From: Bacteroidales bacterium | Lineage (GTDB): Bacteria > Bacteroidota > Bacteroidia > Bacteroidales > P3 | Direction: 5' to 3' | DNA length: 64,000 bases | Assembly: GCA_009783885.1 (NCBI GenBank) | Contig: WRCN01000007.1 | Span: 16,953-80,952 of the forward strand | Part shown: one piece after another, positions 18,124 through 62,521 of the stretch | Layout: each line of letters starts with the position of its first letter | Position numbering within the stretch: position 1 is the stretch's first letter | The notes under the pieces: generated by a model | Told to the model about the DNA's origin: nothing | Databases searched by the model: none | Seen by the model: only the letters and a program-made list of their open reading frames with translations | Program-made: the position numbers and the translations under genes

Positions 18124-18141
18124 GATTGTTTTTATTAAGTC

Positions 18142-18238
18142 GTCACTCCGAGCGCAGTCGAGGAACCGAAGCACGAAGTGCGAGTTCGGCGAAGCCGATC
18201 CCTTCGCTATGGGATGTTTCGACTGCGCTTGACATGAC
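18142..18238. repeat. GAGCG-core hairpin composite (two units plus small internal hairpins)
   Basis: GTCACTCC-GAGCGCAGTCGA-GGAAC, spacer, then GGGATGTT-TCGACTGCGCTT-GACATGAC. It forms the last 32 or so codons and the stop of ptrB. Confidence 0.85.
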
Positions 18239-20287
18239 GTGATTATTCAATGTTTTTAATAGAAAAGTGTATTCAAGTGCAGTTTCTTTCAATGCTTCAA
18301 ATCGTCCGGAAGCACCACCATGCCCGAAGTTCATCTCTGTCTTGAATAGTAATAGATTGTTGTCCGTTTTCGTTGCTCGCAGTTTGGCAACCCATTTTGC
18401 AGGCTCCCAATATTGCACTTGCGAATCATGATAACCCGTTGTTATCAACATATTCGGATAGTTTTGCGGTTTTACATTATCGTAAGGCGAATAAGACAAC
18501 ATATAATCGAAAAATTCTTTTTCGTTGGGATTTCCCCATTCTTCATATTCACCTGTTGTTAGCGGAATATCTTCGTCGAGCATCGTTGTAACCACGTCTA
18601 CAAAAGGCACTTGCGCGATGAGTGTGTGAAACAAATCAGGTCGCATGTTTGCTACTACACCAATCAGCAATCCGCCTGCGCTCCCACCCATTGCTGCAAG
18701 TTTTTGAGGTGATGTAAAATTCTCTTGTATCAACATTTCTGCACAAGCGATAAAGTCTAAAAACGTGTTTTTTTTCTTTAAGAGTTTTGCATTTTCATAC
18801 CATTTTCTGCCCATTTCCTCGCCACCTCGAATGTGCGCAATCGCATACACGAAACCTCTATCTAAGAGGCTCAATCGTGCCGAACTGAAATTCGGGTCAA
18901 TTGAAATTCCATACGAACCATAACCATAAAGCAAGGTTGGATTTTGTCCGTTTTTTTCCACACCCTTTCTGTAAACAATCGAAATAGGTACGCGTTCACC
19001 ATCGTGAGAAATTGCCCACAAACGTTTGCTTTCGTAATTTTCAGGTTTGAAATTTTTATCTAAAACCACCTGCTGTTTCAGCATCACGATTTCGCGAGTT
19101 TTCAGATTGTATTCGTACGAAGTGCGTGGCGTTGTCATAGATGTATAACCGTATCTCAACGTCGTGGCATAAAAATCCGGATTGTAGCCAATACCTGTAT
19201 TATAGACTTCTTCGGGAAATTCAAGATAGTAATCCTCGCCGTTTTTCAAACTGATAATTCGAATATGATTGAGCGCATTTTTTCGCTCCTCTAAAACCAA
19301 ATAATCGGAAAAAACTTCAAAATCCTCCAATTTCACATCATCACGATGCGGAATGATGTCTTTCCAATTCTCTTTGTTTGTCAAACGTTCTGGCGTTTTC
19401 ATCAATTTGAAATTGGTGGCTTGCCAATTCGTCATCACAAAAAAATGATCTTCAAAGTGCTCGATAGAATATTCCAAATCTTTTTCTCTGCGATGAAATA
19501 TTTGAAATTCTGCTTCGGGCTGATTAGCAGGAATAATACGATATTCAGACGATGTAGAACTCCCTGAAAACAAAAAAACGTAGCTTTCCGATTTCGTTCG
19601 TCCCACGCCAACATTAAATTTTGCATCTTTCTCAAAAAAGATTTCTTGTTCGTTTTTCGGATTTCCAAGCGTATATCTTATCACTCGGCAATCACGCAAT
19701 TGGCGGTTTTGCTTAACATAAAACAAGGTTTTGTTATCTGCAGTCCAAGTAAAATTTCCTGAAGTTTTTTCAATTTTTTCGTTCAAGATTTCACCGGTTT
19801 CTAAATTTTTAAACCAAATATCATAAATCCGACGACTTACAAAATCCACTGCAAACGCCAACATTTTATTATCGTCGCTAATCGCTAATTCGCTCACAGC
19901 ACAGAACGCGTGACCTTCGGCAAGTTTATTCACATCCAAAATTATTTCCTCTAAATTTTCCAATGTTTGGAATTTTCGGCAATAAATCGGGTATTCTTTG
20001 CCTGTTTCGTAACGTGTGTAATACCAATATGCTTTGCGAAAAAACGGAACGCTTTGGTCGTCCTCTTTGATACGCGATTTGATTTCATCAAACAGTTGTT
20101 TTTGTAAGCCTTCCGTATCTTTCATTATCGCATCGCCATAAGCATTTTCGGCATTCAAATACCCCAAAACATCCGGCGTATCACGCTGATTCAGCCAAAA
20201 ATAATCGTCTTGACGAACAACATCGTGCATAGTCAACACTTTCGGATCTTTCTTTGCAATTGGCGCAGTATTTTGCGAATTTATCAT
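18143..20287 (-). CDS. ptrB: Oligopeptidase B / prolyl oligopeptidase family S9A serine protease with a repeat-encoded C-terminal tail
   Basis: N-terminal beta-propeller region (DDYFWLNQRD) and catalytic Ser motif GGSAGGLL. The C-terminal 32 aa, HVMSSAVETSHSEGIGFAELALRASVPRLRSE, come from the repeat. Confidence 0.8.
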   Translation of the reverse strand: MINSQNTAPIAKKDPKVLTMHDVVRQDDYFWLNQRDTPDVLGYLNAENAYGDAIMKDTEGLQKQLFDEIKSRIKEDDQSVPFFRKAYWYYTRYETGKEYPIYCRKFQTLENLEEIILDVNKLAEGHAFCAVSELAISDDNKMLAFAVDFVSRRIYDIWFKNLETGEILNEKIEKTSGNFTWTADNKTLFYVKQNRQLRDCRVIRYTLGNPKNEQEIFFEKDAKFNVGVGRTKSESYVFLFSGSSTSSEYRIIPANQPEAEFQIFHRREKDLEYSIEHFEDHFFVMTNWQATNFKLMKTPERLTNKENWKDIIPHRDDVKLEDFEVFSDYLVLEERKNALNHIRIISLKNGEDYYLEFPEEVYNTGIGYNPDFYATTLRYGYTSMTTPRTSYEYNLKTREIVMLKQQVVLDKNFKPENYESKRLWAISHDGERVPISIVYRKGVEKNGQNPTLLYGYGSYGISIDPNFSSARLSLLDRGFVYAIAHIRGGEEMGRKWYENAKLLKKKNTFLDFIACAEMLIQENFTSPQKLAAMGGSAGGLLIGVVANMRPDLFHTLIAQVPFVDVVTTMLDEDIPLTTGEYEEWGNPNEKEFFDYMLSYSPYDNVKPQNYPNMLITTGYHDSQVQYWEPAKWVAKLRATKTDNNLLLFKTEMNFGHGGASGRFEALKETALEYTFLLKTLNNHVMSSAVETSHSEGIGFAELALRASVPRLRSE

Positions 20288-20519: not shown

Positions 20520-21668
20520 TTACTCCGCATTTTTAGACTTTTTCCGAGACCCTTCATAAAGTTCAAACTTTTGAAATTTACAGAGCAAAGAACCGTTATA
20601 AAGTTCAATTTTTTTCGATGGATGTAAGCCGAAACGTTTCATCGCGTCTACGTCCGAACTGATAAACCATGCTATCCAATCTTGATAATCTTTCTTGAGT
20701 TTATCACCGATATTTTGATACATTTCTATCAAGTCTTCAACTTCCAAACGCACGCCATACGGTGGATTGCTAACGATCATTCCTTTTTCACAAGGCTTAT
20801 CCAATTTCATAAAATCGCCCAAACGCAAGCTAATGTCTTTGTGCAAGCGCGCTTGCTTGATATTTTGCTCTGCGATATACAAACTCTCTTCGGAAATATC
20901 CGACCCGAAGATTTCGCATTCAGGATCACTGATATTCTCTACAGCCATTGTCTGCACTTGTTTCCAGAGCATTGTATCAAAATCGTTCCAATATTGAAAA
21001 GCGAATTTTTTTCGATAAAATTGCGCCGGCATATTACAGGCTTTCATTGCTGCCTCTATCAGCAGCGTACCCGAACCACACATCGGATCGTAAAAATCTG
21101 TTTTCATATCCCACTCGCTCAACACAATCAAACCAGCTGCCAGCACTTCGTTTATCGGCGCTTGATTCGCTTGAATTCGGTAATTGCGGCGATGCAAAGA
21201 ATCTCCCGAACTGTTTAGCGAGATCACACAACGATTTCGATATAAATACACATCAATTTTCACATCCGCATTTTCTAAATCCACATACGGACGCTTGTGA
21301 AACAATCTTCTGAAATGGTCGCAAATAGCGTCTTTCGTGCGTTGCGAAACAAATTTAGTGTGTGTGAAAACGGAATCCATACAAAAGGATTCTACCATCA
21401 TTTTACTATCTACGCAGAATAGTTTTTCCCACGCCATACTCACGACTTTGTCGTACAAATCGTCTTGCGTTTTGATTTGAAAATCCACTAAAGGTTTCAA
21501 AATCGCCAATGCTGTACGACACTCGTAATTAGCTCGATACATCACTTTTTGATCGCCCTCGAACATCACGGCACGGTTTCCTATTTCGATATTGGTAGCA
21601 CCCAAATCAGCTAATTCCTTAGCCAAAATGGGCTCTAGTCCTTTCATTGTTTTTGCGGTTAACTTCAT
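20520..21668 (-). CDS. THUMP-domain class I SAM-dependent RNA methyltransferase (RlmL/COG0116-like)
   Basis: It carries the motifs DPMCGSGTLLIEA (SAM binding) and VSNPPYG (catalytic NPPY). The start was trimmed to MKLTAKTMKGLEP at 21668. Confidence 0.8.
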   Translation of the reverse strand: MKLTAKTMKGLEPILAKELADLGATNIEIGNRAVMFEGDQKVMYRANYECRTALAILKPLVDFQIKTQDDLYDKVVSMAWEKLFCVDSKMMVESFCMDSVFTHTKFVSQRTKDAICDHFRRLFHKRPYVDLENADVKIDVYLYRNRCVISLNSSGDSLHRRNYRIQANQAPINEVLAAGLIVLSEWDMKTDFYDPMCGSGTLLIEAAMKACNMPAQFYRKKFAFQYWNDFDTMLWKQVQTMAVENISDPECEIFGSDISEESLYIAEQNIKQARLHKDISLRLGDFMKLDKPCEKGMIVSNPPYGVRLEVEDLIEMYQNIGDKLKKDYQDWIAWFISSDVDAMKRFGLHPSKKIELYNGSLLCKFQKFELYEGSRKKSKNAE

Positions 21669-21692
21669 TATTTTTCCAGTGGTATTTTTCTG

Positions 21693-21700
21693 CAAAGGTA
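21693..21700 (-). promoter_or_regulatory. -7 promoter box (TACCTTTG on minus strand)
   Basis: The minus strand reads TTTTTGTACCTTTGCAGAAAAATACC, 24 nt upstream of the ATG at 21668. Confidence 0.5.
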
Positions 21701-21707
21701 CAAAAAT

Positions 21708-21780
21708 AAATTGAGAATTGAAAATGGAAAATGGAGAATGAAAAATAATTTTCAATTTTCAATTCTCAATTCTCAATTTT
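21708..21780. repeat. Inverted pair of 7-nt tandem repeat arrays between divergent promoters
   Basis: AAATTGAGAATTGAAAATGGAAAATGGAGAATGAAAA-ATA-ATTTTCAATTTTCAATTCTCAATTCTCAATTTT. The right arm is TTTTCAA x2 plus TTCTCAA x2. Confidence 0.8.
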
Positions 21781-21784
21781 TTCG

Positions 21785-21815: not shown

Positions 21816-22619
21816 ATGCTCCCCAAATTATTGCATAACCATTCCGACACAAATTTTTTCCTTCTAGCAGGACCTTGTGTGATTGAAAATGAGACTATGC
21901 CATTCGAAATTGCCGAACGGATCTCAAAAATTTGCAAAAAATTAGAGATTCCGTTTGTTTTCAAAGCCTCGTATCGCAAGGCTAATCGCTCGAAACTGAG
22001 TTCATTTACTGGTATTGGCGATTTGGAAGGTTTGAAAATTTTGCGCGACATTCGTAAACAGTTCGAAATTCCGGTTGTTACCGATATTCATTCTGCCGAG
22101 GAAGCCCAAACTGCTGCTGAATATGTAGATATATTGCAGATTCCGGCGTTTTTGTGTCGTCAAACGGAATTGTTGGTTGCTGCAGCGAAAACCGGACGTT
22201 GTGTGAATGTCAAAAAAGGGCAATTCCTTTCGCCCGATGCGATGAGATTTGCTGTGGAAAAAATCAAACAGGCAGGAAATTATGATGTGATGCTCACCGA
22301 ACGCGGTACAACATTTGGCTATCAAGATTTGGTAGTTGATTTTCGAAGCATTCCGATGATGCAAAAAAACGAGGTTCCCGTAATTGTAGATATTACACAC
22401 TCTCTACAACAACCCAATCAAGTCAGCGGCGTTACCGGCGGGCAGCCCGAAATGATTGAAACCATTGCAAAAGCGGCCGTTGCCGTGGGAGTTGATGGAT
22501 TATTTATCGAAACCCATCCCAACCCCAAACAAGCCCTTTCGGACGGTGCAAATATGCTCGAATTGGATTTGTTGGAAGACCTTTTGGAAAAATTGATTAG
22601 AATACGAAAAAGCCTTTAA
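21816..22619 (+). CDS. kdsA: 3-deoxy-8-phosphooctulonate synthase
   Basis: Blocks LLAGPCVIE, FKASYRKANRS, VTDIH, LQIPAFLCRQTEL and DITHSLQ are all KdsA hallmarks. 267 aa. Confidence 0.9.
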   Translation: MLPKLLHNHSDTNFFLLAGPCVIENETMPFEIAERISKICKKLEIPFVFKASYRKANRSKLSSFTGIGDLEGLKILRDIRKQFEIPVVTDIHSAEEAQTAAEYVDILQIPAFLCRQTELLVAAAKTGRCVNVKKGQFLSPDAMRFAVEKIKQAGNYDVMLTERGTTFGYQDLVVDFRSIPMMQKNEVPVIVDITHSLQQPNQVSGVTGGQPEMIETIAKAAVAVGVDGLFIETHPNPKQALSDGANMLELDLLEDLLEKLIRIRKSL

Positions 22620-24771: not shown

Positions 24772-25296
24772 TTAGGTGTAGCTTTTAAATGTTCCATCCA
24801 TAAAAAACACGATAATTCTTTCGATATCAGAATTTTGATTAGATTCCCGTTTGCTTGCAGGCGGGGCTTTTTCGTGCTGCTCAATTGAAGTAGATGGTGG
24901 CGCGGACTTGTAGTCTGTGCCGTTCCCTTCGACTCCGCTCAGGGATCGGTCGTTGATCGGAGCCGAAACGAGCGTCCGCACCACTGGTAAGTCTGTATCA
25001 ACAGTTTCACTATTCCATTCAAATTCAGGCGTTTTAAAGTCTAATTTAGGCTCTTGTTGTACCGATAGGGTGGGGGCGGATTTTTCAAGGCTAAACATCT
25101 GGTTTTTGCCTGTAAGCAGCCATTCGGCATTGATTTCGGGGAAACGATTGAGGGTTTTCATCACAAAATCCAAACTTGGATTGTTTCGGCGAGCCAATAT
25201 ATGAGACATACTTGAGCGTTGAATTCCGATCGCATCTGCGAACTGGGTTGGGGTTAAATTTTGAGTTTTTAAAATTAACTCGATTCGGTTGATCAT
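24772..25296 (-). CDS. XRE/Cro-type helix-turn-helix transcriptional regulator with a repeat-encoded internal segment
   Basis: N-terminal HTH: MINRIELILKTQNLTPTQFADAIGIQRSSMSHILARRNNPSLDFVMKTLNRFPEINAEWLLTGK. The middle segment ...RTLVSAPINDRSLSGVEGNGTDYKSAP... is encoded by the repeat at 24896-24984. Confidence 0.75.
   Translation of the reverse strand: MINRIELILKTQNLTPTQFADAIGIQRSSMSHILARRNNPSLDFVMKTLNRFPEINAEWLLTGKNQMFSLEKSAPTLSVQQEPKLDFKTPEFEWNSETVDTDLPVVRTLVSAPINDRSLSGVEGNGTDYKSAPPSTSIEQHEKAPPASKRESNQNSDIERIIVFFMDGTFKSYT
24896..24984. repeat. GAGCG-core two-unit element with outer stem, inside the HTH gene
   Basis: Outer arms GGTGGCGCGGAC / GTCCGCACCAC. Inner units are GTTCCC-TTCGACTCCGCTCA-GGGA and TCGTT-GATCGGAGCCGA-AACGA. 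GTAGTCTG at 24910. Confidence 0.8.
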
Positions 25297-25690: not shown

Positions 25691-25810
25691 TATGAATTTA
25701 CGAAAAATAGAATCAGATAAATTTGAGATTTGACCGGCTTTTCTTTGGAAAAATAACAACGAGTTCAATGGAAAAAAAATCGTTGGTTAGAGGGCTGATT
25801 TTGCGTTTGC

Positions 25811-25870
25811 CATTCCGAACGAAGTGAGGAATCTGTTAGCAAGTAGATTTCTAACTTCGTTCGGAATGAC
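25811..25870. repeat. Diverged hairpin repeat pair (core GAACGAAGTGA)
   Basis: CATTCC-GAACGAAGTGA-GGAATC tgttagcaagta GATTTC-TAACTTCGTTC-GGAATGAC. It shares GGAATCTGTTAGC with the element at 8594. Confidence 0.75.
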
Positions 25871-25884
25871 ACCTTTCATTTTGA

Positions 25885-41617: not shown

Positions 41618-42931
41618 ATGTCTCTCGCAGGCAAAAATATCATTGTAGGAATTAGCGGAGGGATTGCAGCTTACAAAACTCTTTCGCTTATTCGGCTTTT
41701 CGTGAAAAACGGGGCTAATGTAAAAGTTGTTGTAACACCGAATGCCCTGAATTTTGTAACAAAATTATCATTGCAAACGCTGTCGAAAAATAAAATTTAC
41801 GACAGCGTTTTTTCTGAAATCAACGACTATTCGACCGAACATATTGCTTTGACTGATTGGGCTGATATGATGGTTGTTGCACCTGCCACAGCAAATATCA
41901 TCGGGAAATTCGCCACCGGTATTGCAGATGATGCCCTATCAACAACATTTTTAGCATTCGACAAACCTGTTTTTATTGCACCTGCAATGAACAACAAAAT
42001 GTACGAAAATCCGGCTGTTCAACGCAATTTACAAACGTTAATTGAGTGTGGCATTCATACGATTGAATCCCCAATCGGCGAATTGGCATGTGGTTGCGAA
42101 GGCAAAGGCAGAATGGAAGAACCTGAGGTGATTTTTGAGCGTATCACCGGTTTTTTTTTGACCTTAGAACATGCTGACCATGCTCCTACAAAACCGTTTT
42201 GTGGCAAAAAGGTTTTGGTAACGGCAGGTCCGACTTACGAAGTCATAGACCCCGTTCGATTTATTGGTAATCATTCATCAGGATTGATGGGGATTTGCAT
42301 TGCCGATGAGCTTGCTGATCGCGGTGCAGAAGTGATTTTAGTTTGTGGACCAAGTGTGATCAAATCGAAAAATTCTTCGGTTAAACGTATGGATGTTGTT
42401 TCTGCAAAAGACATGTTTGACGTTTGTAAACAACATTTCGAAACTGCTGATATTACCGTGTGTTCAGCAGCTGTTGCGGATTATACCCCAAAACAAATTG
42501 CATCACAAAAAATCAAGAAAAAAGACAATGATTTAGTCCTGAAACTCACCAAAACTCCTGATATTTTAGGTTATTTAGGTGAACATAAAACTTCTGAACA
42601 ATTTTTAGTTGGTTTCGCATTAGAAACGGAAAACGAATTTCAAAACGCCGAAACCAAGCTAAAATCAAAGCATTTGGATATGCTCGTTTTAAATTCTTTG
42701 AATGATGAAGGCGCAGGTTTTGGGCATATCACAAACAAAATTTCTATGCTTTTTAAACAAGGCACGGGTTGCGCTTCGACTCCGCTCAGCGCACGGACAT
42801 TGAGCGGAGCCGAAATGTCCGCGCCCACGATTAAACATTTTGAACTAAAAAATAAGATGGATGTGGCGAAGGATATTGTTGATGAAATTTTCAAAGCCGT
42901 CATGTCGAGCGCAGTCGAGACATCCCCTTAA
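41618..42931 (+). CDS. coaBC: Bifunctional phosphopantothenoylcysteine decarboxylase / phosphopantothenate-cysteine ligase, with repeat-encoded insert and tail
   Basis: CoaC motifs GISGGIAAYK and PAMNxxM. CoaB motifs VTAGPTxExIDPVRFIxNxSSG and AAVADY. The insert TGCASTPLSARTLSGAEMSAP and the tail VMSSAVETSP are encoded by repeats. Confidence 0.9.
   Translation: MSLAGKNIIVGISGGIAAYKTLSLIRLFVKNGANVKVVVTPNALNFVTKLSLQTLSKNKIYDSVFSEINDYSTEHIALTDWADMMVVAPATANIIGKFATGIADDALSTTFLAFDKPVFIAPAMNNKMYENPAVQRNLQTLIECGIHTIESPIGELACGCEGKGRMEEPEVIFERITGFFLTLEHADHAPTKPFCGKKVLVTAGPTYEVIDPVRFIGNHSSGLMGICIADELADRGAEVILVCGPSVIKSKNSSVKRMDVVSAKDMFDVCKQHFETADITVCSAAVADYTPKQIASQKIKKKDNDLVLKLTKTPDILGYLGEHKTSEQFLVGFALETENEFQNAETKLKSKHLDMLVLNSLNDEGAGFGHITNKISMLFKQGTGCASTPLSARTLSGAEMSAPTIKHFELKNKMDVAKDIVDEIFKAVMSSAVETSP
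42761..42826. repeat. GAGCG-core two-unit element inserted in frame in coaBC
   Basis: TGCGC-TTCGACTCCGCTCA-GCGCA, then GGACAT-TGAGCGGAGCCGAA-ATGTCC. Confidence 0.85.
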
Positions 42932-42964
42932 GCAGGGGGATTCCTCGACTACGCTCCGAATGAC
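42899..42964. repeat. GAGCG-core hairpin pair spanning the coaBC stop codon
   Basis: GTCATGTC-GAGCGCAGTCGA-GACATCCCC, loop TTAAGCA (the TAA stop lies in the loop), then GGGGGATTCC-TCGACTACGCTC-CGAATGAC. Confidence 0.85.
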
Positions 42965-43011
42965 GGACAAACAACTAAACAATTAAGCGACTAAACAACT
43001 AAACAAAACAT

Positions 43012-43917: not shown

Positions 43918-43918
43918 T

Positions 43919-43999
43919 GTAGGGGCGACCCCTTGTGGTCGCCCTCGTTGATATTTAACACAATTGCAAGTAAGGGCGACCACAAGGAGTCGCCCCTAC
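43919..43999. repeat. Inverted doublet of GTAG-headed REP-like hairpins (REPIN/BIME-like)
   Basis: 43919-43946 reads GTAGGGGCGAC-CCCTTGTG-GTCGCCC. The minus strand of 43974-43999 reads GTAGGGGCGAC-TCCTTGTG-GTCGCCC. The two copies differ by 1 nt and have a 27-nt spacer. Confidence 0.8.
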
Positions 44000-44037
44000 A
44001 CAATAAAAAATAAATTTTCAATCCAAATTCAAACCCC

Positions 44038-52996: not shown

Positions 52997-53009
52997 ATTA
53001 GAATTCCAA

Positions 53010-53588
53010 ATGAAAATTATTATTATTGAAAAGAATAATCAGTTTCGCCTAATCCCCGATTCCGCGCTATTGCTGAAAAATAGACCATTGTTTTGCCCTG
53101 ATTATGTGCAGACATTACACGCAAAAATCGCATTGGTTGTAAAAATTAACCGCTTGGGCAAATATATTCAAGAAAAATTTGCACCAACATATTACGATGA
53201 AGTCGGTTTTGCTATTAATTTTTACGACAAAACTTGTTTAGATTCTCTTATTCAACAGGGTTTACCATGGGAACGTGCCACGTGTTTTGATGGCAGTTTT
53301 GCGCTGTCGGAATTTGTGGCTTCGACTTCGCTCAGTCACCGTGTGCAGGTGCGGACGTTGAGCGCAGTCGAAACGCCCGCGCCGATAGAAAAGAAACAAA
53401 CATTTGAAATCGTACAAACCATTCAAAAAATCCCTTCTATAATTTCAAAATTATCCACCTACATGACCTTGAAAATTGGGGATTATATTGCATTTGAAAT
53501 TAGTGAATTTCCCGAATCGATTGCGATTAATGATGTTTTGCGATTGTCGGTTGATGGTAAACAAATGGTAAATGTTGTTGTAAAGTAA
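53010..53588 (+). CDS. Fumarylacetoacetate-hydrolase (FAH) fold-like protein with divergent catalytic motifs and a repeat-encoded insert
   Basis: MKIIIIEKNN..., LLLKNRPLF and GLPWERATCFDGSFALSEF parallel the MKIICIGRNY, lFlKp and G.PWe.aK.FD blocks of small FAH proteins. The insert ASTSLSHRVQVRTLSAVETPAP comes from a repeat. Confidence 0.55.
   Translation: MKIIIIEKNNQFRLIPDSALLLKNRPLFCPDYVQTLHAKIALVVKINRLGKYIQEKFAPTYYDEVGFAINFYDKTCLDSLIQQGLPWERATCFDGSFALSEFVASTSLSHRVQVRTLSAVETPAPIEKKQTFEIVQTIQKIPSIISKLSTYMTLKIGDYIAFEISEFPESIAINDVLRLSVDGKQMVNVVVK
53316..53382. repeat. GAGCG-core two-unit element inserted in frame in the FAH-like gene
   Basis: GTGGC-TTCGACTTCGCTCA-GTCAC (one G-T pair in the stem), then GCGGACGTT-GAGCGCAGTCGA-AACGCCCGC. 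Confidence 0.85.
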
Positions 53589-54715: not shown

Positions 54716-57700
54716 TTATTTTTTAACGAATCTCTGCGTTGTAACACCTTGATCGGTTGTAATTTTAATCAGATATGTACCCGATTTCAAATCGCCAACT
54801 TGGATTTCTTGTGTGCTGTTTATAACAACTTTCACAAGTTTTCCTTGTAGATTGTAGATTTCTACGCGTTTTACCGATTCGGTTGAGCTGATAAACAATC
54901 TGTCTTCTACAGGGTTCGGATAGATGGTTATTCTGCTCAAATCAATAGGTTTAACACTAACTTCCGTTACTTCAAAGGCAATAGGTACAATGGCCGAAAG
55001 GCTACCGCCGTCACCAACAGCTTGTACGCCGGCAACATAGCTACCCGGTGCAAGATCATTAAACACATATTGCATAGTGGTAGCACTAACTGCATCAAAA
55101 AGATTACCATCCAAGAAAATATTAAAGCCTGCAAGCTCTTCTTCAGAAGCTTTGCCTTGACTTTCAATTGAAATATCATCAATGGTGATATACAATCCTT
55201 CTTCTTGCGGTGTCATATCGTGGAAACCAAGGAAGTATTCGCCTGATGTAGTTGGAGTGAAATTAAACGTAACCTGCGTCCACTCTGTAACTCTTTGGTT
55301 AGTGTTACTAAACACCGTTGTTGCGCCAGTCATTGTTGCAGAAGCACCACTTCCTGTTCGGTCTGTAGTAGTTCCGATTTGTACTTTGAACATATCAAAT
55401 TCATTAAACTGAGGATAGCCTGGAGCTCTATACCAGAAACTAATGGTATAGGTTGTTCCTCCAGTAAGGTTGATACCGTTGCTAAATGTCCAAGTAAAGC
55501 CACCGGTGTTAGCCCAGCTTCTGTTTAATTGACGTGTTCCTGTTCTTGGTACAATGGTAGCAGGAGTTGATCCTCCTGATGTTACACCAAATACAGTATT
55601 GCCTGTAGTTCCCCAAGCAACCTCGCTTGTGCGTGTCCAACCTTCAGGCATAGTACTTGCCGGCTGAGTATCGCCATCGCCAAAACCACCGCCTGTTGTG
55701 CCCTCAAAGCCTTCAAAGTAAGGCGTATCATCACCACCTGCTCCTCCTCCATGGCTCCATGTCAATGTAGCTGTAGATCCGTTAACGTTAACTGCTAACG
55801 TGTGAGGATTAGGAAAATCTCCTTCATCGAGAACTGTTGTAAACGTCCAACTGATTGGATCAGCATAATCTACAATAGCGCCTGCAGGAATATTAACCGT
55901 ATAAATGGTTCCTTGTTCGAAGTTATCATGAGCAATGATTAAATCCGTGCCAACAACACTTGCAGAAATTCCTGTGACTGTCGGTGAGAACGTAATTCCG
56001 CTCAATGTGCCTGCTGTTACATTTTGGTTGAAGGTTGCTTTTACAACTGCATCAACGGCTACGTCTGTAGCGTTGTTAGCAGGAGTTGTTGAAGTGAGTT
56101 CTACAGGAATCTCTCCAGGGGTTCCAACAACCAAACGAATAGCACAAGTAAATGCATTCGCATTATTCAGTGTTGTAGTACCGTTATGGAGGTAAACCAC
56201 ACCTCCGGCTACATAAGCTACGGAAACGTTAGTAGCGGTAAGTTGTCTTACAGCTATCAGGTAACGACCCGGAGCCAATGCTTGTGGTGTAGTAAGCGTA
56301 ACCGTATTCCAACCTACTGCTGTTCGTTGTGTGGTTTGGGTGTACATCGGCGTTTCCGCAACAGCCAAACCGGAACTTCCTGTCATAGCATAGATTGCAA
56401 CCTCATAGTTTAGAGGAGTTGCAGTTGCATGTCCAACTACGATTTGGAGTGCTGAAGTTGCGTTGGCAATTTCAAAGATATTACCAAACGTAAGTGCACC
56501 ATCGTTAGAACCGATACCTAATGCAAAAGTAGTTTCGTTATCTACAGCAAACGTACCTTCTGTACCCATGATGTTAAGCGTAGCTGTAATCGAACCGGCA
56601 GGGGTTTCCGTTGAACTTGCTGTGTAAACAAACGTGTTGTTTCCAAGTGGAACAGTAGTCATACCTGTTGCTACAGTCATTGCAGCAGAAGTTGCGCCCG
56701 GAGCCAAAGTATCTACAGGAGTAGACGGCGTACCAACTGCAGTTCCGTTCATTGCAACAGAGAATTTCACGTTAGTTTGTGCTGCTGAACCGATGTTTTT
56801 AACAGTTGCTGTTAGGTTTGCAGGGAAAACATTTTGAGAAGTTGGGATTTGGGTGTAAGGTAATGCAGCTGCAATAACTTCCAAATCATTTGCTGCAGGT
56901 ATTGTGATCGAAATGTCGTCAATAGAGATAACAAAACCTCTACCGCTTGGCGTTTGATCGTGGAATCCGAGGTAATGAAGTCCGGTTGTTGTCGGCGTGT
57001 ATTGGAAAGTTGCTTGAGTCCAAACTGAAACAGATGTTGCGGTTTGAGTAAATATGGTTGTACCACCGGTCATCGTAGCGTTAGCATTTGTGCCAGTTCT
57101 CGCTGTTGATGGTCCAATTTGTACTTTAAACAAATCTCTTTCTGCTGTCTGTCCTTGATAACCCGGAGCTTGATACCAGAAACTTACGGTGTAAGTGGTT
57201 CCTGCTGTAAGTGCAATAGGCTCGCTAAATGCCCATGAAAAACTACCGCTTCTCGACCAGCTTTTTGTCAAGAAACGAGTTCCTGTGCGTGCATTTGGAG
57301 TTCCGCCCTCTATACCTTCCGCTTGTTGACCGCTTGTTAGAGTTTTCCAAGCAATAGTAGCAGTTGAATGTGTCCATCCGGCAGGAAGAACAGTGTCAAC
57401 AGTAGCTTCAAAACCTTCGAAATAAGGAATAGGAGCACCTGTAACGATGGTATTGGTTATCGTACGTGTAGTATCAGCTCTATTGGTAGCTGTTGGAGTA
57501 TTGCCTGGGAAGGCGATAACCACTCTAACTTGATGTGGTCCGGCTGCCGCAAGGTTGGCTTTCGCGTTGAATGTATAAGTTGTGCGAGAGGTAGCAGCAG
57601 TGGCTCCTCTTGCAACCCTATCAATATTTTCGGTAGCGATAAGTACTCCGCCAACCCACAATTCCACAGGTATATTTCTAACGCTGAATGTTCCACCGTT

Positions 57701-60700
57701 TTCAACAGTAATAGTTACTGTTTCGGCATTGCTTGCATTTGTTAATTGAGCAGCTGGAACAGTCCAAGCTTGAACACCTAACACAACGTTATTCGTAACG
57801 TTGCGTACAGCAGTATCATTTACTGCACTTGTGTCGTTTGGAACAGCATTAACGTATGCTCTAATAGCGTTAGCACCGGCTACAAGAGCAACCGGCAAAA
57901 TAACGGTTTCAGAAGCGCCAACGGCAAGGCTTGGAATAGTCGTTGTAACTGGTGTTCCATAGTTAACAGAAGCATTAACAACAAGACTTGTTAATGGCAT
58001 GTTACCATTGTTGCGAACAACGATTGTTGCAGGAATACTGTCCATATTGGTAGCAGTGGCTGTAGGGGTCATAACACTAACAACTTGCGCATCAACGATG
58101 AATGTATTCGTTACAGCCAAACGTGCAGTATCGTTGCTTGCATCTTCATCACCTGTAAGACCAGCAATTGCCATAAGGTTAGTTGTGCTGGTTACCATTG
58201 AATTGGTAAAGTCAACTTGTTGTGAGAACGTATGGAAATAAACGTCTCCACTGGCCATACTGTCTACACCAGCTGCAAAGCTAGTAACGGTATCAGTAAC
58301 AAGCAATGTGCCATTAACATACAATGAAACAGGAAGTGAGTTGAATGAAGTTGTTCCTGCATTCATAACTTCAACGGTTACATTTTGTGGTGTTGTTTGT
58401 GCTGTTAAATTTGCATTTGGAGCAGTAAATTGTACAATCATTGCATCGGTTATACCAGCGTCAGAAGCACTAATGATACCATGCTCGTAAACATTGTTGG
58501 TGAGATTTCCGTCATTGTAAAGATCGGCCGTAACAATGAGGTCGTAAGCACCAAACGCTGAAAAATCAACCGTTGTTTGGAAAACCACATTATAGGTTGC
58601 TCCTGCAGCAATGCTGAGACCTGTAAGCGTAGTATCCAAAGTTGCTGTAAAACCGATTGCAGCCTGTGTTTTTCCTTCAATTTCCACATTAAGAGCAAAA
58701 TCTGTAATGGTAACAGAACCCATGTTGGTTACTTGAACCGTAAGAACTTCTGCATTGGTCGCATTTATAATCGGAGTAACAGGAGTAACAACACCTGTAA
58801 CAGCAATGTCAATCGTATTATTGGTTCCGCTTATAGTTGCTGTATCGTCAGCAGCTATCATGTCTCTTGTGTCGGTGATAACAGCTTGAACTGTGAAAGC
58901 TCCGGCAGCTGTAAGATCAACTTGAAGAGTAGACGTATAGTTTTGTGTAGCACCCGGGGCAATGTTGGTTGTTGAGGTTGTATCCATACCGATAGACGTT
59001 CCGTTAACGAAAATTTCAAACGCAATTTGGCTGTAGCCTAAACCTGTGTTTGATAAGTTTTGGATTTGTACAGTAGGATAGTAAGTCGTAAGGTTTGTGT
59101 CTTGTCCTGAAGGAATTCCTGTCATAGCAACCATTGCAAAGTTAACTGTATCAGGATCTGTTGTGAAAGTTCCGGTTGCAGAAGTCATCATCTGAGCACA
59201 AACACCGGTTACGTTCCAAGTATAAGTTGTGTTGCCTAACAAACCGGGAACCATGATTTCTGTAGCTGATGTAGTTGTTGTGTAAACAACAGCAGTAGTT
59301 GCATCATAAACATTCACTTGGTAAACAGGTGCCGTACCGCTCCACTCCAATTTCGCTTGCGGACGAGAACCCACAGCAGCCATGTTATCCGGAGCAGTAC
59401 AAGGATCTGCCATAATCATACGAACGCAAGGCATACCTACAGCAGCTGAAGTATTAACAATAAGGTTTCCTGTAGTTCTGGTGTAGAATGTTCTGCCGGC
59501 AACACTGTCGTGACGAAGAGCAACAGTTGCTGTGGTGCTTTGACGGATGCCTAAGAAATAGGAGCCAGGTTCTAATACAACCGGTGTAGCAAGCGTGTGC
59601 ACATTCCAACCTACTGTTGGCGTACCGAAAGCCACATTATTGATCAATACATCCCCTGTTAGCGTAGTTCCTGTAACGGCTTGCAAGAATATTTGAGGAA
59701 CACCTGTAGTTGCGTTGAAGTTTGCTTTCACACCTGAAAGTACAGTTGTGTCGGTAATGGTGAAAACGTGTCCTCTTGCGGTTCCGTTCGTACCGTTCAC
59801 GTTACCCCATGTAGTACGAGTCGGATCATCCAAAGAGTATTCGTTTGCCGTTCCTTCGAAGGTTTGTGTAGCTGTTAAAACTGTTCCACCTGTGTAGAAA
59901 TCAGAAGAAACCGTATAATTCAACGTGTTGGTTCCTGGAGCAATAACAGCTGTAGGAGCAGCAGTCGGAGTAGCAGTTAAAGTTTGAGACGTACCGAAAA
60001 CCATAGAAGCAACAGGCGTAGATGTTGCAATTGAAGTGGCTCCTAATGCAACACCAAGCGTTACGTTGGTTTGTGGATTAAGCCCTGCGTTTTTAACAGT
60101 TGCCGACATCGGTGCAACGATTGATTGCGTAGTCGGAATTTGTGTAAATGGGAATGGAGCTACCGCAGTTACTACCATTTCATTTGCAGGAACAAGAGCA
60201 ACCGACATATCATCGATCTCCCAAGAAGTAGTCCAACCTGATGCGGTAGCTTCAACAATAAATGCGAGGTAAATGGTTTGCCCTGCATATGCGTCAAGCA
60301 AAATAGCATTTTCTTGCCATGGGGTTCGTGTCGCACCTGTACCTCTTATCGCAACAGGAGAAAGTAAGGTAAATGATGCCGGATCATTGTTTGTGTTTGA
60401 AACCCAAACGCCAAATGTACCGCCATCTTCTCCATATTGAAAACGATCCCAGAAATTAAGGGCGTAAACCCCTATAGCAGGTATGGCTAAGGCTTCAGTA
60501 ATTAAGTAACTGAATTGCCCGGCGGCATTGTTTGTATTAGGATATCTTGCTTGAGCCGTACTGCCCGGTCTTAGTGGAGCGTCTGTGCCTCTTACCCATC
60601 TTGATGCAGTAGCGTTACTGGATAGATTTGCCCAGCATGCACTAGGCGGGAATGTTGTTGCGTCAAAACCTTGAGTATACGGGAATGTGCTAACAGCAAC

Positions 60701-62521
60701 ACAAGCCATTGGGGTGAATGGAGTTCCCGGAGTTACCGAAGTATTCGTAGCATCACACAACGCTTCAACAGCCCATGTGTATGTGCCGGGTTGCAGGTTG
60801 TTAATGGTCAACGTTTTGTTCCATGTTGTAAAAACTTGATCGGCAGTTCCATTATTGATAACCACTTTGTATTGTGGCGCAGTTCCTTCCCAAGTTAACG
60901 TTATCGTATTAAAATCCGGAGAAACAGCAGCCAAAGCACTTGGAGCAGTGCAAGTCGCATCTACGAAAATAAGTTGAAGTGCACCGGCACCAAAAGAATT
61001 TTGGCGGAACAAGTTAGAATTTGCACGACCGGTGTACATACTTCTAGTTGTATTACCATCGTGTCCAAATCCGATATTGGCTGAACCTGTCTGAACAAGA
61101 CAAACATAATAGCGACCCGGAGTCAATGCCAATGGAGTTGGAAGATTAACAGTGGTATAACCACCTGTATTTCTGGCTATGTCTGGGATTGCAACCAATG
61201 GCGTAGCCGCAGTTGTCAATCCGTTTACGGCATATACTTCCAAGTCATAATTTGCAGCAGTAGTACTCGTGCTGAAACCCACTACAATTTGAGAAAGAGT
61301 AGTTGCTGTAGTGATGTCATAAACATTTCCCATAGTGATTGGACTTGTGTTTCCAATTCCACCGGTGATAGGACCATTAACAACCATGAAGTTGGTTGTT
61401 CCTGTGAAGTTAGGAAGGGTTACTGTATTATCATTTAGATCATCATCGGTCTGAGTTTGACTCACGGTATAAACTAATGTATTTGTTCCAAGAACTCCAT
61501 TAAAAGCCGGAACGCTGAGATTTACATTTGCACCTGGTGCCAAGGAAGCGTGCGGAGCAGATGTTCCGGCAGGATTACCGTTAAGAGTAGCCGAAAGCGT
61601 GATATTGGTTTGTGCTAATGCTCCAATATTACTAACCGCTCCTGTCAAAGGCATTACAAAATTTGCCGGAATTTGTAAAGGCCATTGTGGCGAAACTGCC
61701 ACAGTTAGAGCCAAATCGTTGTCATTAACAGCTCCAACGAAAATATCATCAAGCAATACGGCATAACCGGAATACGGCGATGCCGCCGGTGTACGATCGT
61801 TAAAACCTAAAAAGTAATTGCCGGTTGTCGTAGCTGTATAAAATATAGTAACGTTAGTCCAACCATCAATATTCGTGTTAGTGGTAAAAAGCGTTTCTGT
61901 CATGCTGGCTTCCGCCGCTGCAGATCCTATTTTTACATCAAATTGATTAGGGGGAAGCGGAGTACCACCGGCATTAACTTCAGGTATTTGATACCAAAAA
62001 CTTACCATATAGGTTTGTCCTGATGTCATAGCAATTGCGGGCGTAAACAACCATGCATTCACAGCAGTTGTACCAACTGCCGAAGTAAACGCCAATCGAG
62101 TCCCTGTACGGGGAGCCCATGTTAAGCCACTGTGGCTGGTGGTACTGGTACCAGTAGTCCAGGCTCCAAAAACAGGCGTGCTGCTTCCCGTTACGTTCGC
62201 ACCGGTTCTTGTCCAACCTGCCGGTAATTGACTGGCTGCCGTGTTAGAAGTGCCGTTGAAATTGCCATTTGCAAGCAAGTTAGCTCCCGGCGCTCTGTTT
62301 GGTCCTGATGGAGCAGTTTCAATTGCTTCTGCAATTTTCTGTTGGAGTTCCATCTCCATTGTTCTTTCGCTACTCTCACAAACTTGTAGAGGAGCGTTTG
62401 TGGCTTTAAAAGGCTGAACCCCAGCTCTTGTCGGCTTCGACGAGCTAAAGTCAGCCATTTGTTGTCCATACATGCTTACTATAGCAAACATCAGGACGAG
62501 AAAAGTAAATAGTCTTTTCAT
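54716..62521 (-). CDS. Giant (2601 aa) modular cell-surface protein with type A T9SS C-terminal sorting domain
   Basis: Signal peptide MKRLFTFLVLMFAIVSMYGQQ. There are four modules with the signature PxGW...SFWY...LGFxD...IDDI (about nt 61735-62230, 60198-60685, 56904-57433 and 55165-55729). There are at least 8 CARDB-like Ig units (VKNAG/VKNIG...TNV), FN3-like units (TLTWEGTAPQYKV, KLEWSGTAPVYQV) and one SbsA-type Ig unit (TPANNATDVAVDAVVKATFNQNV). The last 70 or so aa, ITIYPNPVEDRLFI...GTYLIKITTDQGVTTQRFVKK, form the Por secretion tail. Confidence 0.85.
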   Translation of the reverse strand: MKRLFTFLVLMFAIVSMYGQQMADFSSSKPTRAGVQPFKATNAPLQVCESSERTMEMELQQKIAEAIETAPSGPNRAPGANLLANGNFNGTSNTAASQLPAGWTRTGANVTGSSTPVFGAWTTGTSTTSHSGLTWAPRTGTRLAFTSAVGTTAVNAWLFTPAIAMTSGQTYMVSFWYQIPEVNAGGTPLPPNQFDVKIGSAAAEASMTETLFTTNTNIDGWTNVTIFYTATTTGNYFLGFNDRTPAASPYSGYAVLLDDIFVGAVNDNDLALTVAVSPQWPLQIPANFVMPLTGAVSNIGALAQTNITLSATLNGNPAGTSAPHASLAPGANVNLSVPAFNGVLGTNTLVYTVSQTQTDDDLNDNTVTLPNFTGTTNFMVVNGPITGGIGNTSPITMGNVYDITTATTLSQIVVGFSTSTTAANYDLEVYAVNGLTTAATPLVAIPDIARNTGGYTTVNLPTPLALTPGRYYVCLVQTGSANIGFGHDGNTTRSMYTGRANSNLFRQNSFGAGALQLIFVDATCTAPSALAAVSPDFNTITLTWEGTAPQYKVVINNGTADQVFTTWNKTLTINNLQPGTYTWAVEALCDATNTSVTPGTPFTPMACVAVSTFPYTQGFDATTFPPSACWANLSSNATASRWVRGTDAPLRPGSTAQARYPNTNNAAGQFSYLITEALAIPAIGVYALNFWDRFQYGEDGGTFGVWVSNTNNDPASFTLLSPVAIRGTGATRTPWQENAILLDAYAGQTIYLAFIVEATASGWTTSWEIDDMSVALVPANEMVVTAVAPFPFTQIPTTQSIVAPMSATVKNAGLNPQTNVTLGVALGATSIATSTPVASMVFGTSQTLTATPTAAPTAVIAPGTNTLNYTVSSDFYTGGTVLTATQTFEGTANEYSLDDPTRTTWGNVNGTNGTARGHVFTITDTTVLSGVKANFNATTGVPQIFLQAVTGTTLTGDVLINNVAFGTPTVGWNVHTLATPVVLEPGSYFLGIRQSTTATVALRHDSVAGRTFYTRTTGNLIVNTSAAVGMPCVRMIMADPCTAPDNMAAVGSRPQAKLEWSGTAPVYQVNVYDATTAVVYTTTTSATEIMVPGLLGNTTYTWNVTGVCAQMMTSATGTFTTDPDTVNFAMVAMTGIPSGQDTNLTTYYPTVQIQNLSNTGLGYSQIAFEIFVNGTSIGMDTTSTTNIAPGATQNYTSTLQVDLTAAGAFTVQAVITDTRDMIAADDTATISGTNNTIDIAVTGVVTPVTPIINATNAEVLTVQVTNMGSVTITDFALNVEIEGKTQAAIGFTATLDTTLTGLSIAAGATYNVVFQTTVDFSAFGAYDLIVTADLYNDGNLTNNVYEHGIISASDAGITDAMIVQFTAPNANLTAQTTPQNVTVEVMNAGTTSFNSLPVSLYVNGTLLVTDTVTSFAAGVDSMASGDVYFHTFSQQVDFTNSMVTSTTNLMAIAGLTGDEDASNDTARLAVTNTFIVDAQVVSVMTPTATATNMDSIPATIVVRNNGNMPLTSLVVNASVNYGTPVTTTIPSLAVGASETVILPVALVAGANAIRAYVNAVPNDTSAVNDTAVRNVTNNVVLGVQAWTVPAAQLTNASNAETVTITVENGGTFSVRNIPVELWVGGVLIATENIDRVARGATAATSRTTYTFNAKANLAAAGPHQVRVVIAFPGNTPTATNRADTTRTITNTIVTGAPIPYFEGFEATVDTVLPAGWTHSTATIAWKTLTSGQQAEGIEGGTPNARTGTRFLTKSWSRSGSFSWAFSEPIALTAGTTYTVSFWYQAPGYQGQTAERDLFKVQIGPSTARTGTNANATMTGGTTIFTQTATSVSVWTQATFQYTPTTTGLHYLGFHDQTPSGRGFVISIDDISITIPAANDLEVIAAALPYTQIPTSQNVFPANLTATVKNIGSAAQTNVKFSVAMNGTAVGTPSTPVDTLAPGATSAAMTVATGMTTVPLGNNTFVYTASSTETPAGSITATLNIMGTEGTFAVDNETTFALGIGSNDGALTFGNIFEIANATSALQIVVGHATATPLNYEVAIYAMTGSSGLAVAETPMYTQTTQRTAVGWNTVTLTTPQALAPGRYLIAVRQLTATNVSVAYVAGGVVYLHNGTTTLNNANAFTCAIRLVVGTPGEIPVELTSTTPANNATDVAVDAVVKATFNQNVTAGTLSGITFSPTVTGISASVVGTDLIIAHDNFEQGTIYTVNIPAGAIVDYADPISWTFTTVLDEGDFPNPHTLAVNVNGSTATLTWSHGGGAGGDDTPYFEGFEGTTGGGFGDGDTQPASTMPEGWTRTSEVAWGTTGNTVFGVTSGGSTPATIVPRTGTRQLNRSWANTGGFTWTFSNGINLTGGTTYTISFWYRAPGYPQFNEFDMFKVQIGTTTDRTGSGASATMTGATTVFSNTNQRVTEWTQVTFNFTPTTSGEYFLGFHDMTPQEEGLYITIDDISIESQGKASEEELAGFNIFLDGNLFDAVSATTMQYVFNDLAPGSYVAGVQAVGDGGSLSAIVPIAFEVTEVSVKPIDLSRITIYPNPVEDRLFISSTESVKRVEIYNLQGKLVKVVINSTQEIQVGDLKSGTYLIKITTDQGVTTQRFVKK

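Follow-up and report, generated by a model that had tools for sequence, protein, structure and literature searches.

Does a core metabolic enzyme of an uncultured Bacteroidales lineage carry a peptide encoded by a dispersed repeat? The question is raised by a 64-kb stretch of contig WRCN01000007.1 (hereafter the window), in which the coaBC open reading frame (ORF; 41618..42931, + strand) encodes a 437-aa phosphopantothenoylcysteine decarboxylase/phosphopantothenate-cysteine ligase and contains, at 42761..42826 (+), a 66-nt segment in which two hairpin units from a family with the core TCGACTNCGCTC stand head to head. coaBC is regarded as essential. With a probability of about 80%, we take this segment to be a repeat that was inserted in frame and is translated and tolerated.

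A pair of hairpin units in frame within coaBC

The segment extended from the first base of codon 382 (42761) to the last base of codon 403 (42826), and thus corresponded to exactly 22 in-frame codons, GTGCASTPLSARTLSGAEMSAP, preceded in the translation by ISMLFKQ and followed by TIKHFELKNK. Profile matches to CoaBC ended at residue 377-383, and the C-terminal helix resumed downstream of the insert. An earlier note on this DNA had described the segment as a complete repeat read in frame, and this description held: two family cores were present, and the core, allowing at most one mismatch, occurred 20 times in the window versus 0.43 expected, a count reached by none of 100 shuffles.

The two cores face opposite ways, each with its own short flanking inverted repeat. 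Unit 1 (42770..42793, +) was characterized by a stem TGCGC(T)/(A)GCGCA enclosing the 12-nt core TCGACTCCGCTC (42776-42787). Unit 2 (42789..42824, −), whose core lies on the minus strand at 42802-42813, exhibited a stem GGACATT/AATGTCC that can be extended to GCGC(A)CGGACATT/AATGTCCGCGC; there is overlap between its 5' arm and the 3' arm of unit 1. Of the six reading frames of the element, four were open, with TGA, within TTGAGCG, as the sole stop.

To describe the unit, 28 copies from the window and four related loci (five loci in all) were aligned in like orientation. They aligned without gaps, the core always forming the 12-nt hairpin loop and the 5-7 bp stem varying between copies (e.g. ATTCC/GGAAT, ATGTC/GACAT, GGTCGT/ACGACC, GGTGGC/GCCACC, GTTCCC/GGGAAC, TGCGC/GCGCA, and GGACAT/ATGTCC). 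The five inner stem positions were paired in about 90% of cases, with 2-5 standard pair types each, and the stem covariation score was 0.745 versus 0.283 in shuffles (0 of 500 reached 0.745), falling to 0.07-0.16 when the pairing was slid. The reading of the segment as two hairpins, also put forward in the earlier note, is thus borne out by covariation across the 28 copies but not by the fold of the isolated strand: the minimum-energy structure of the 81-nt strand was one long hairpin with the two cores paired together (−33.3 kcal/mol), more stable than shuffles (z = −3.1). The isolated strand favours this single hairpin because inverted units have complementary loops. Both folds are possible, and covariation backs the unit hairpins only.

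Comparison with orthologues and selection on coaBC

The window protein was compared with its 19 nearest CoaBC relatives, which were 66-90% identical and typically 398-402 aa long. Where sequences and their loci have to be told apart, we use the labels P0003 = L001, P0002 = L002, P0004 = L003, P0005 = L085, P0019 = L141, P0010 = L144, and P0007 = L140. The closest orthologue, P0003, which comes from a metagenome-assembled genome (Bacteroidales bacterium isolate Crp329_bin6), is 398 aa long and 90% identical over shared columns, the window protein being 39 residues longer. At the insert site, P0003 reads ...ISILFPNKNTKHFELKNK..., with a five-residue turn versus KQG, 19 residues, and TI in the window, and most other relatives also exhibited a 5-residue turn (PNKNT and similar). 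The alignment, which had been proposed as a check on the insertion, therefore gave a clean indel, of 21 codons, against P0003 and most relatives.

The insert was not confined to the window. L002 and L003, from other assemblies, had this pair in frame at the equivalent position, in a version of 57 nt, so that three independent assemblies have an in-frame insert of 66, 57, and 57 nt, respectively; L085 and L141 carried what appear to be internally deleted remnants at this site. The second stem, GGACAT/ATGTCC, was identical in the window, L002, and L003. The stem of unit 1 was TGCGC/GCGCA in the window, which has 9 extra nt, versus GGCAC/GTGCC in L002 and L003; both arms differ, and both versions pair. 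Moreover, 6 contigs of separate assemblies, with ENA and Logan among the sources, encoded the identical 437-aa protein; the insert thus did not arise by misassembly of the window.

The ratio of nonsynonymous to synonymous divergence (dN/dS, Nei-Gojobori) of coaBC was 0.135 versus L001, 0.083 versus L002, and 0.103 versus L003, with dS values of 0.43, 1.28, and 1.24, respectively. These ratios indicate that coaBC is under strong purifying selection. Every invariant CoaBC residue of a 113-sequence alignment was retained in the window protein, and no second coaBC was found within the 64-kb window. The order bamD-like/rpoZ/coaBC/pyrB/pyrI was also kept in relatives. With a dN/dS of 0.08-0.14 and the C-terminal helix kept, the claim that the frame and the segment downstream of the repeat are preserved was upheld.

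Predicted structure of the insert

The protein comprised the Pfam domains Flavoprotein (residues 6-177, N-terminal) and DFP (196-377, C-terminal), and matched the CoaBC equivalog TIGR00521 with 423 bits; the best solved relatives were 6TGV, the CoaBC of M. smegmatis, and two CoaB domain structures, 5INT and 1U7U. The AlphaFold2 model, for which the 113-sequence alignment served as input, had a mean predicted local distance difference test score (pLDDT) of 91.6, and its CoaB half superposed on E. coli CoaB (1U7Z/1U80) with a template modelling (TM) score of 0.94-0.95 and a root-mean-square deviation of 1.5-1.8 Å. In this model, the insert lies between the last two CoaB beta-strands (372-379 and 404-412), which are followed by a helix (413-434). 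Mean pLDDT fell to 60 in the ten residues 381-390 and to 52 in 391-400, and was below 50 at residues 187-190 of the linker between the CoaC and CoaB domains; the low-confidence parts of the model were all three of the repeat-derived segments of the protein (the other two are described below). In the model, the insert adds a loop, probably disordered, where the last beta-hairpin turns. The structural check suggested in the earlier note thus places the site, in the model, in a low-confidence loop of an intact fold (TM 0.94).

Two further repeat-derived segments in coaBC

The loop insert had been recognized in the earlier note, which missed two other repeats in the same gene. One of these, at 42167..42189 (−), is a decayed repetitive extragenic palindromic (REP) sequence of the GTAG type, GTAG-GAGCATG-GTCAG-CATGTTC, located in the CoaC-CoaB linker, to which it adds about 8 codons (LEHADHAP, the linker reading T-LEHADHAP-TKPF). 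At the same site, L003 carried GTAG-GGGCGCG-GTCAG-CGCGCCT and L144 carried GTAG-GGGCAGG-GTCAA-CCTGCCC, the stem remaining 7 bp long in all three lineages despite differences on both arms. L001, L002, and L085 had a short linker without this REP.

The other, at 42897..42966 (+), is a copy of a long hairpin of the same core family, hereafter type A (CCGTCATGTCGAGCGCAGTCGAGACATCCCC ... GGGGATTCCTCGACTACGCTCCGAATGACGG), the arms of which (42897-42927 and 42936-42966) were 81% complementary. It encodes the last 11 residues of CoaBC (AVMSSAVETSP), and its central loop supplies the TAA stop codon (42929-42931); orthologues end in ...EIANN, ...EITHYIF, or ...EITNYIQ, without a type A tail. Overall, the 8 + 21 + 10 repeat-encoded residues account for the whole 39-residue excess over P0003.

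Right after the coaBC stop codon, L002 and L003 exhibited an intrinsic-terminator-like hairpin with a T-run (GGGCGACGCAATTGTTGCCC TTTTTTTT). In the window, the type A repeat was found in the place of this hairpin, with no T-run.

In-frame repeats in other genes and in relatives

Of the five unit pairs in the window, three were in frame within ORFs, namely coaBC, a FAA-hydrolase-family ORF, and a helix-turn-helix (HTH) protein. The pair at 53313-53388 (+), in the FAA-hydrolase-family ORF (~53005-53588), encodes ASTSLSHRVQVRTLSAVETPAP and is read in the same frame as in coaBC. This region was hypervariable in close relatives, which differed in length and in their repeat-derived peptides, and distant homologues had native strands; the ORF was therefore rejected as a second case of a clean indel. 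The peptide RTLSEVEM was common to the FAA-hydrolase-like gene of a relative and to the coaBC insert of L002. The HTH protein (174 aa; ORF 24772..25296, −) carried its pair in frame at 24920-24978 (…VSAPINDRSLSGVEGN…), in a low-complexity region after the N-terminal HTH domain. This pair was enclosed by a larger palindrome, GTGGCGCGGAC...GTCCGCACCAC, part of which, GGCGCGGACTTGTAGTC[CT]GTGCC, was also present inside the coaBC insert of L141.

Type A copies were found at gene ends as well, two of the four complete copies in the window overlapping ORF 3' ends. Besides coaBC, this was the case of a prolyl-oligopeptidase-family ORF (18143..20287, −; Peptidase_S9_N and Peptidase_S9), in which the domain is complete at residue 682 of 714 and the remaining tail of 32 residues, HVMSSAVETSHSEGIGFAELALRASVPRLRSE (18143-18245), is wholly encoded by type A and read, like the coaBC tail, in the frame that gives VMSSAVETS.

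Among the relatives, P0007 coaBC carried an independent unit pair in frame directly after KIKKN, VSTSLNDRVSDTERSRSVET (L140, 5878-5950), P0016 yet another repeat after KIKKN, and P0019 also an insert at the KIKKN point. KIKKN is the lysine-rich K-x-K-K loop, which in M. smegmatis CoaBC closes the CoaB active site (PMC7794376), and the P0007 pair is adjacent to it. Moreover, the linker of P0010 coaBC contained a classical CGTC-type REP pair (GTCATTCCCGCGTAGGCGGGAATCCCC...) in addition to a GTAG REP, and P0019 coaBC exhibited forward GTAG REPs both in the linker and at the C-terminus. In-frame repeat carriage is thus a habit of this genome and clade, and not a one-off. A search of a protein database with a 43-aa concatenate of the repeat-encoded peptide gave no candidate.

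Origin and maintenance of the insert

The reading that we favour is as follows. The 66-nt segment would be a pair of small hairpin units, REP-like and placed head to head, from a dispersed family of this uncultured Bacteroidales lineage; the pair became fixed in coaBC at the tip of the last CoaB beta-hairpin. Divisible by three in length and free of stops in the frame used, it would be transcribed and translated with coaBC, yielding a loop of about 21 residues, probably disordered, that the enzyme tolerates and that may well be neutral for it; the junction peptides to be expected are ...MLFKQGTGCASTPLSAR and TLSGAEMSAPTIK. We read the insert as tolerated selfish or structural DNA and not as a new protein function. 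Its spread would most likely have occurred in trans, through an enzyme that, like those moving REPs, recognises hairpins in single-stranded DNA.

Several points weigh against this account. The making of a peptide from the insert is something that we infer from the reading frame, and the solvent exposure of the loop is suggested by secondary structure and confidence in the model, not by the dodecamer. A search of the six frames of the 64-kb window for HUH/Y1 (RAYT/IS200-like) motifs revealed no ORF with an HUH...Y motif, and neither a transposase nor any other mobilising gene was present in these 64 kb. Above all, the insert was more conserved than a drifting neutral sequence should be: it was 87-96% identical between lineages whose third codon positions were 54-60% identical (binomial p = 2e-6 to 6e-10), and the hairpin units differed at 0, 4, and 4 of 45 positions. 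In the same lineages, third codon positions of coaBC were about 40-46% different, and the 12-nt 3' tail of the insert showed 5 differences out of 12 in every lineage pair (Fisher test against the units, p = 2e-4 to 0.015). The divergence of the tail suggests that the insert is old; in that case, the units must have been kept near the family consensus by structural selection or by conversion from other copies.

The distribution of the insert is a further difficulty. In a neighbour-joining tree of CoaBC (393 gap-free columns), each insert-bearing sequence stood next to an insert-free one (window-P0003, P0002-P0010, and P0004-P0014). The ancestral turn, of the PN[KQ]xx type, was present in all insert-free alleles and missing from the insert alleles, so simple deletion cannot convert one allele into the other. 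A single ancient vertical insertion followed by simple losses was accordingly rejected as insufficient, as deletion could not have regenerated the turn of the insert-free sisters. Allelic recombination or repeated events would be needed to explain the pattern seen in these sequences. As for a recombinant tract extending beyond the insert, no long one was visible; the flanks in the window were nearer to L001 than to L002, and the regions compared are short.

Judging by these comparisons, 'merely tolerated junk' is an incomplete account. The units in coaBC might be actively maintained, either by selection on an RNA or DNA structure within an essential gene or by a family that repairs or re-seeds its copies at permissive sites, a proposal that we find unlikely but that, if true, would account for the near-identity of the units at saturated dS, the paired stem changes, and the conflict with the tree. 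Were re-seeding by conversion or site-preferring insertion the mechanism, essential genes would be long-lived safe havens for the repeat.

A rival explanation is that the hairpins are kept for a nucleic-acid role in the coaBC-pyrBI transcript or on the DNA, whether as a site to which a protein binds or as an RNA structure acting on ribosome pausing or on the stability or processing of the mRNA, with the peptide as a by-product. The units, 0-9% diverged at a synonymous divergence of about 1-1.3 next to a 42% diverged tail, would fit such a role, as would stem 1, which differs on both arms between the window and L002/L003 with pairing kept, the 7-bp stem of the linker REP, kept in three lineages through two-arm changes, and a fold more stable than its shuffles. 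Gene conversion by copies of the same subfamily could, however, give the same pattern, as the occurrence of RTLSEVEM in an unrelated gene of a relative suggests. Moreover, the insert is dispensable, because it is absent from most relatives and apparently internally deleted in L085 and L141, and it matched no Rfam family. We regard this role as quite unlikely.

Much less probable still is an insert that escapes translation, through ribosome bypass or RNA removal, leaving a mature enzyme with a normal short turn. T4 gene 60 and the mitochondrial 'byp' elements are examples of bypass, with stable hairpins at bypass sites, and the stable hairpin of the segment, GC-rich within a gene rich in AT, recalls them. 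Nevertheless, every coaBC insert examined (the loop inserts of 66, 57, and 57 nt, the remnants in L085 and L141, the P0007 pair, and the REPs of the linker) had a length divisible by three and no stop codon in the frame of the host gene, which disfavours bypass or excision because a removed element would escape this constraint. No take-off/landing codon pair and no following stop codon were evident in the sequence; there was no Rfam intron match, and 22 residues are far too few for an intein. We give equally little credence to coaBC being a decaying pseudogene or an assembly chimera, with a working copy elsewhere. The metagenomic origin of the sequence and three repeat insertions in one gene could raise this suspicion, but it is countered by the low dN/dS, the lack of any frameshift or stop, the presence of all invariant residues, the identical protein on 6 contigs, the homologous inserts in two other assemblies, and the lack of a second copy within the window.

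Relation to known palindromic repeats

In-frame palindromic repeats were reportedly first described by Ogata et al. in 2000, as Rickettsia palindromic elements (RPEs). The coaBC repeat resembles them in being a dispersed palindromic repeat with a sizeable fraction of copies inside ORFs, in frame, housekeeping genes included, and with translation, putative in coaBC, into extra loops at permissive sites, the downstream frame being kept and most frames open. It differs in its sequence and in its host, which belongs to the Bacteroidales and not to the Rickettsiales; in its unit, a short hairpin, variable in the stem and conserved in the 12-nt loop, that occurs singly, as an inverted pair, or within a longer hairpin; and in that several unrelated repeat families strike the same coaBC gene. 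As a member of a dispersed palindromic family inserted in frame and absent from orthologues, the segment would, on sequence grounds, belong to an RPE-like functional class. The likeness appears to be one of behaviour, and we do not claim membership in the Rickettsia families proper (RPE-1 to RPE-10).

The earlier note cited Rickettsia as its precedent, but in-frame colonisation is not confined to Rickettsia (PMC3733652, PMC6006769) and extends to transposase genes of Bacteroidetes. In several phyla, REPs with a GTAG or CGTC tag have been found within the ORFs of known proteins, their dimers encoding 20-30 residues (PMC3733652). REPs form head-to-head dimers, mostly at gene 3' ends with an intragenic minority, and stop codons are at times contributed by their termini (Di Nocera et al. 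2013, PMC3733652); those of the CGTC type are present in Bacteroidetes and have no dedicated transposase (PMC3733652). Type A copies are similar to CGTC REPs, as they begin with CGTC-AT... and end with ...AT-CCCC (tag, AT stem start, and CC(A) tail), e.g. CGTC-ATGTC-...-GACAT-CCCC at 42898-42927. The coaBC loop units, in contrast, lack a CGTC or GTAG tag, being flanked by GGGTTGCGC and GCGCCC, and have a 5-7 bp stem with a 12-nt loop versus an 8-9 bp stem with a 4-5 nt loop in CGTC REPs, a geometry unlike that of the published families. Likewise, the linker insert at 42167-42189 is a plain GTAG REP, whereas the loop insert has no GTAG foot.

In-frame REPs have also been reported in tnpA(REP) transposase genes, in a subclass of which Cyanobacteria and Bacteroidetes have many members (Quentin et al. 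2018, PMC6006769), and 'atypical secondary structures' were noted around a Bacteroidetes-specific subclass (2.6) (PMC6006769); here, however, the host is a core metabolic enzyme and not the transposase itself. The arrangement of two inverted hairpin units as one mobile-looking unit recalls the REPIN-RAYT system (Bertels and Rainey 2011, PMC3116915), although no RAYT gene was found in the 64-kb window. A literature search with the core sequence returned chance primer matches only, and the core was absent from the text-form supplements of PMC6006769 and PMC3733652. We file the coaBC element as one that works like known in-frame REPs and RPEs and belongs to no named family.

These results extend selfish palindromes inside proteins to a core metabolic enzyme of an uncultured Bacteroidales, in a dense form in which every extra residue is repeat-derived. 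Across the clade, the same sites were struck repeatedly (domain linker, K-x-K-K loop, last beta-hairpin, and C-terminus), and they provide a natural map of insertion-tolerant positions in CoaBC, a drug target in other bacteria. For annotation, the warning is that length outliers and odd C-termini in such genomes are repeat-encoded. The strong conservation of the hairpins within coding sequence offers a testable handle on whether repeats are maintained by selection, conversion, or renewed insertion.

Other repeats and features of the window

Inverted unit pairs, in which each unit has its own stem, were located at ~2939, 24929, 42770, 53322, and 53597, and a single unit at ~52131. Type A long hairpins, of the form CGTCAT-unit-ATCCCC ... 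GGGGAT-unit-ATGACG, were found at ~320-400, 975-1045, 18140-18245, and 42897-42966, with half copies at ~12600 and ~30030. No flanking direct repeat, as would be left by the target-site duplication of a MITE (a miniature transposable element with inverted repeats), was consistent across the five pairs in the window; the unit pair is itself an inverted repeat, and comparison with the empty site was blurred, the junction residues differing too. Rfam gave no family at the gathering threshold in the window and, at the E-value threshold, only weak matches to generic hairpins (miRNA) around coaBC. A tRNA-derived origin was rejected: the loop TTCGACTCC resembles a T-loop, yet its 5-nt flanks never pair as a T-stem, and no CCA end was shared consistently by the copies.

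GTAG REPs also occurred outside coaBC, as an inverted pair between pyrB and pyrI at 43918-44000 (GTAG-GGGCGACC-...-GGTCGCCC; arms 96% complementary) and as further GTAG-GGGC REPs at ~44499, 27558, and 14407. A long hairpin at 25808-25871 (TGCCATTCCGAACGAAGTGAGGAATCT / AGATTTCTAACTTCGTTCGGAATGACA), with the loop GAACGAAGTGA versus GAGCGAAGTCGA in type A, looks like a diverged type A subfamily. Between the ORFs 20520..21755 (−) and 21816..22619 (+), we observed an AT-rich 35-nt inverted repeat (21705-21782; AATAAATTGAGAATTGAAAATGGAAAATGGAGAAT / ...), which is unrelated to the GC-rich repeat families. Finally, a very large ORF of 2601 aa was present at 54716-62521 (−).

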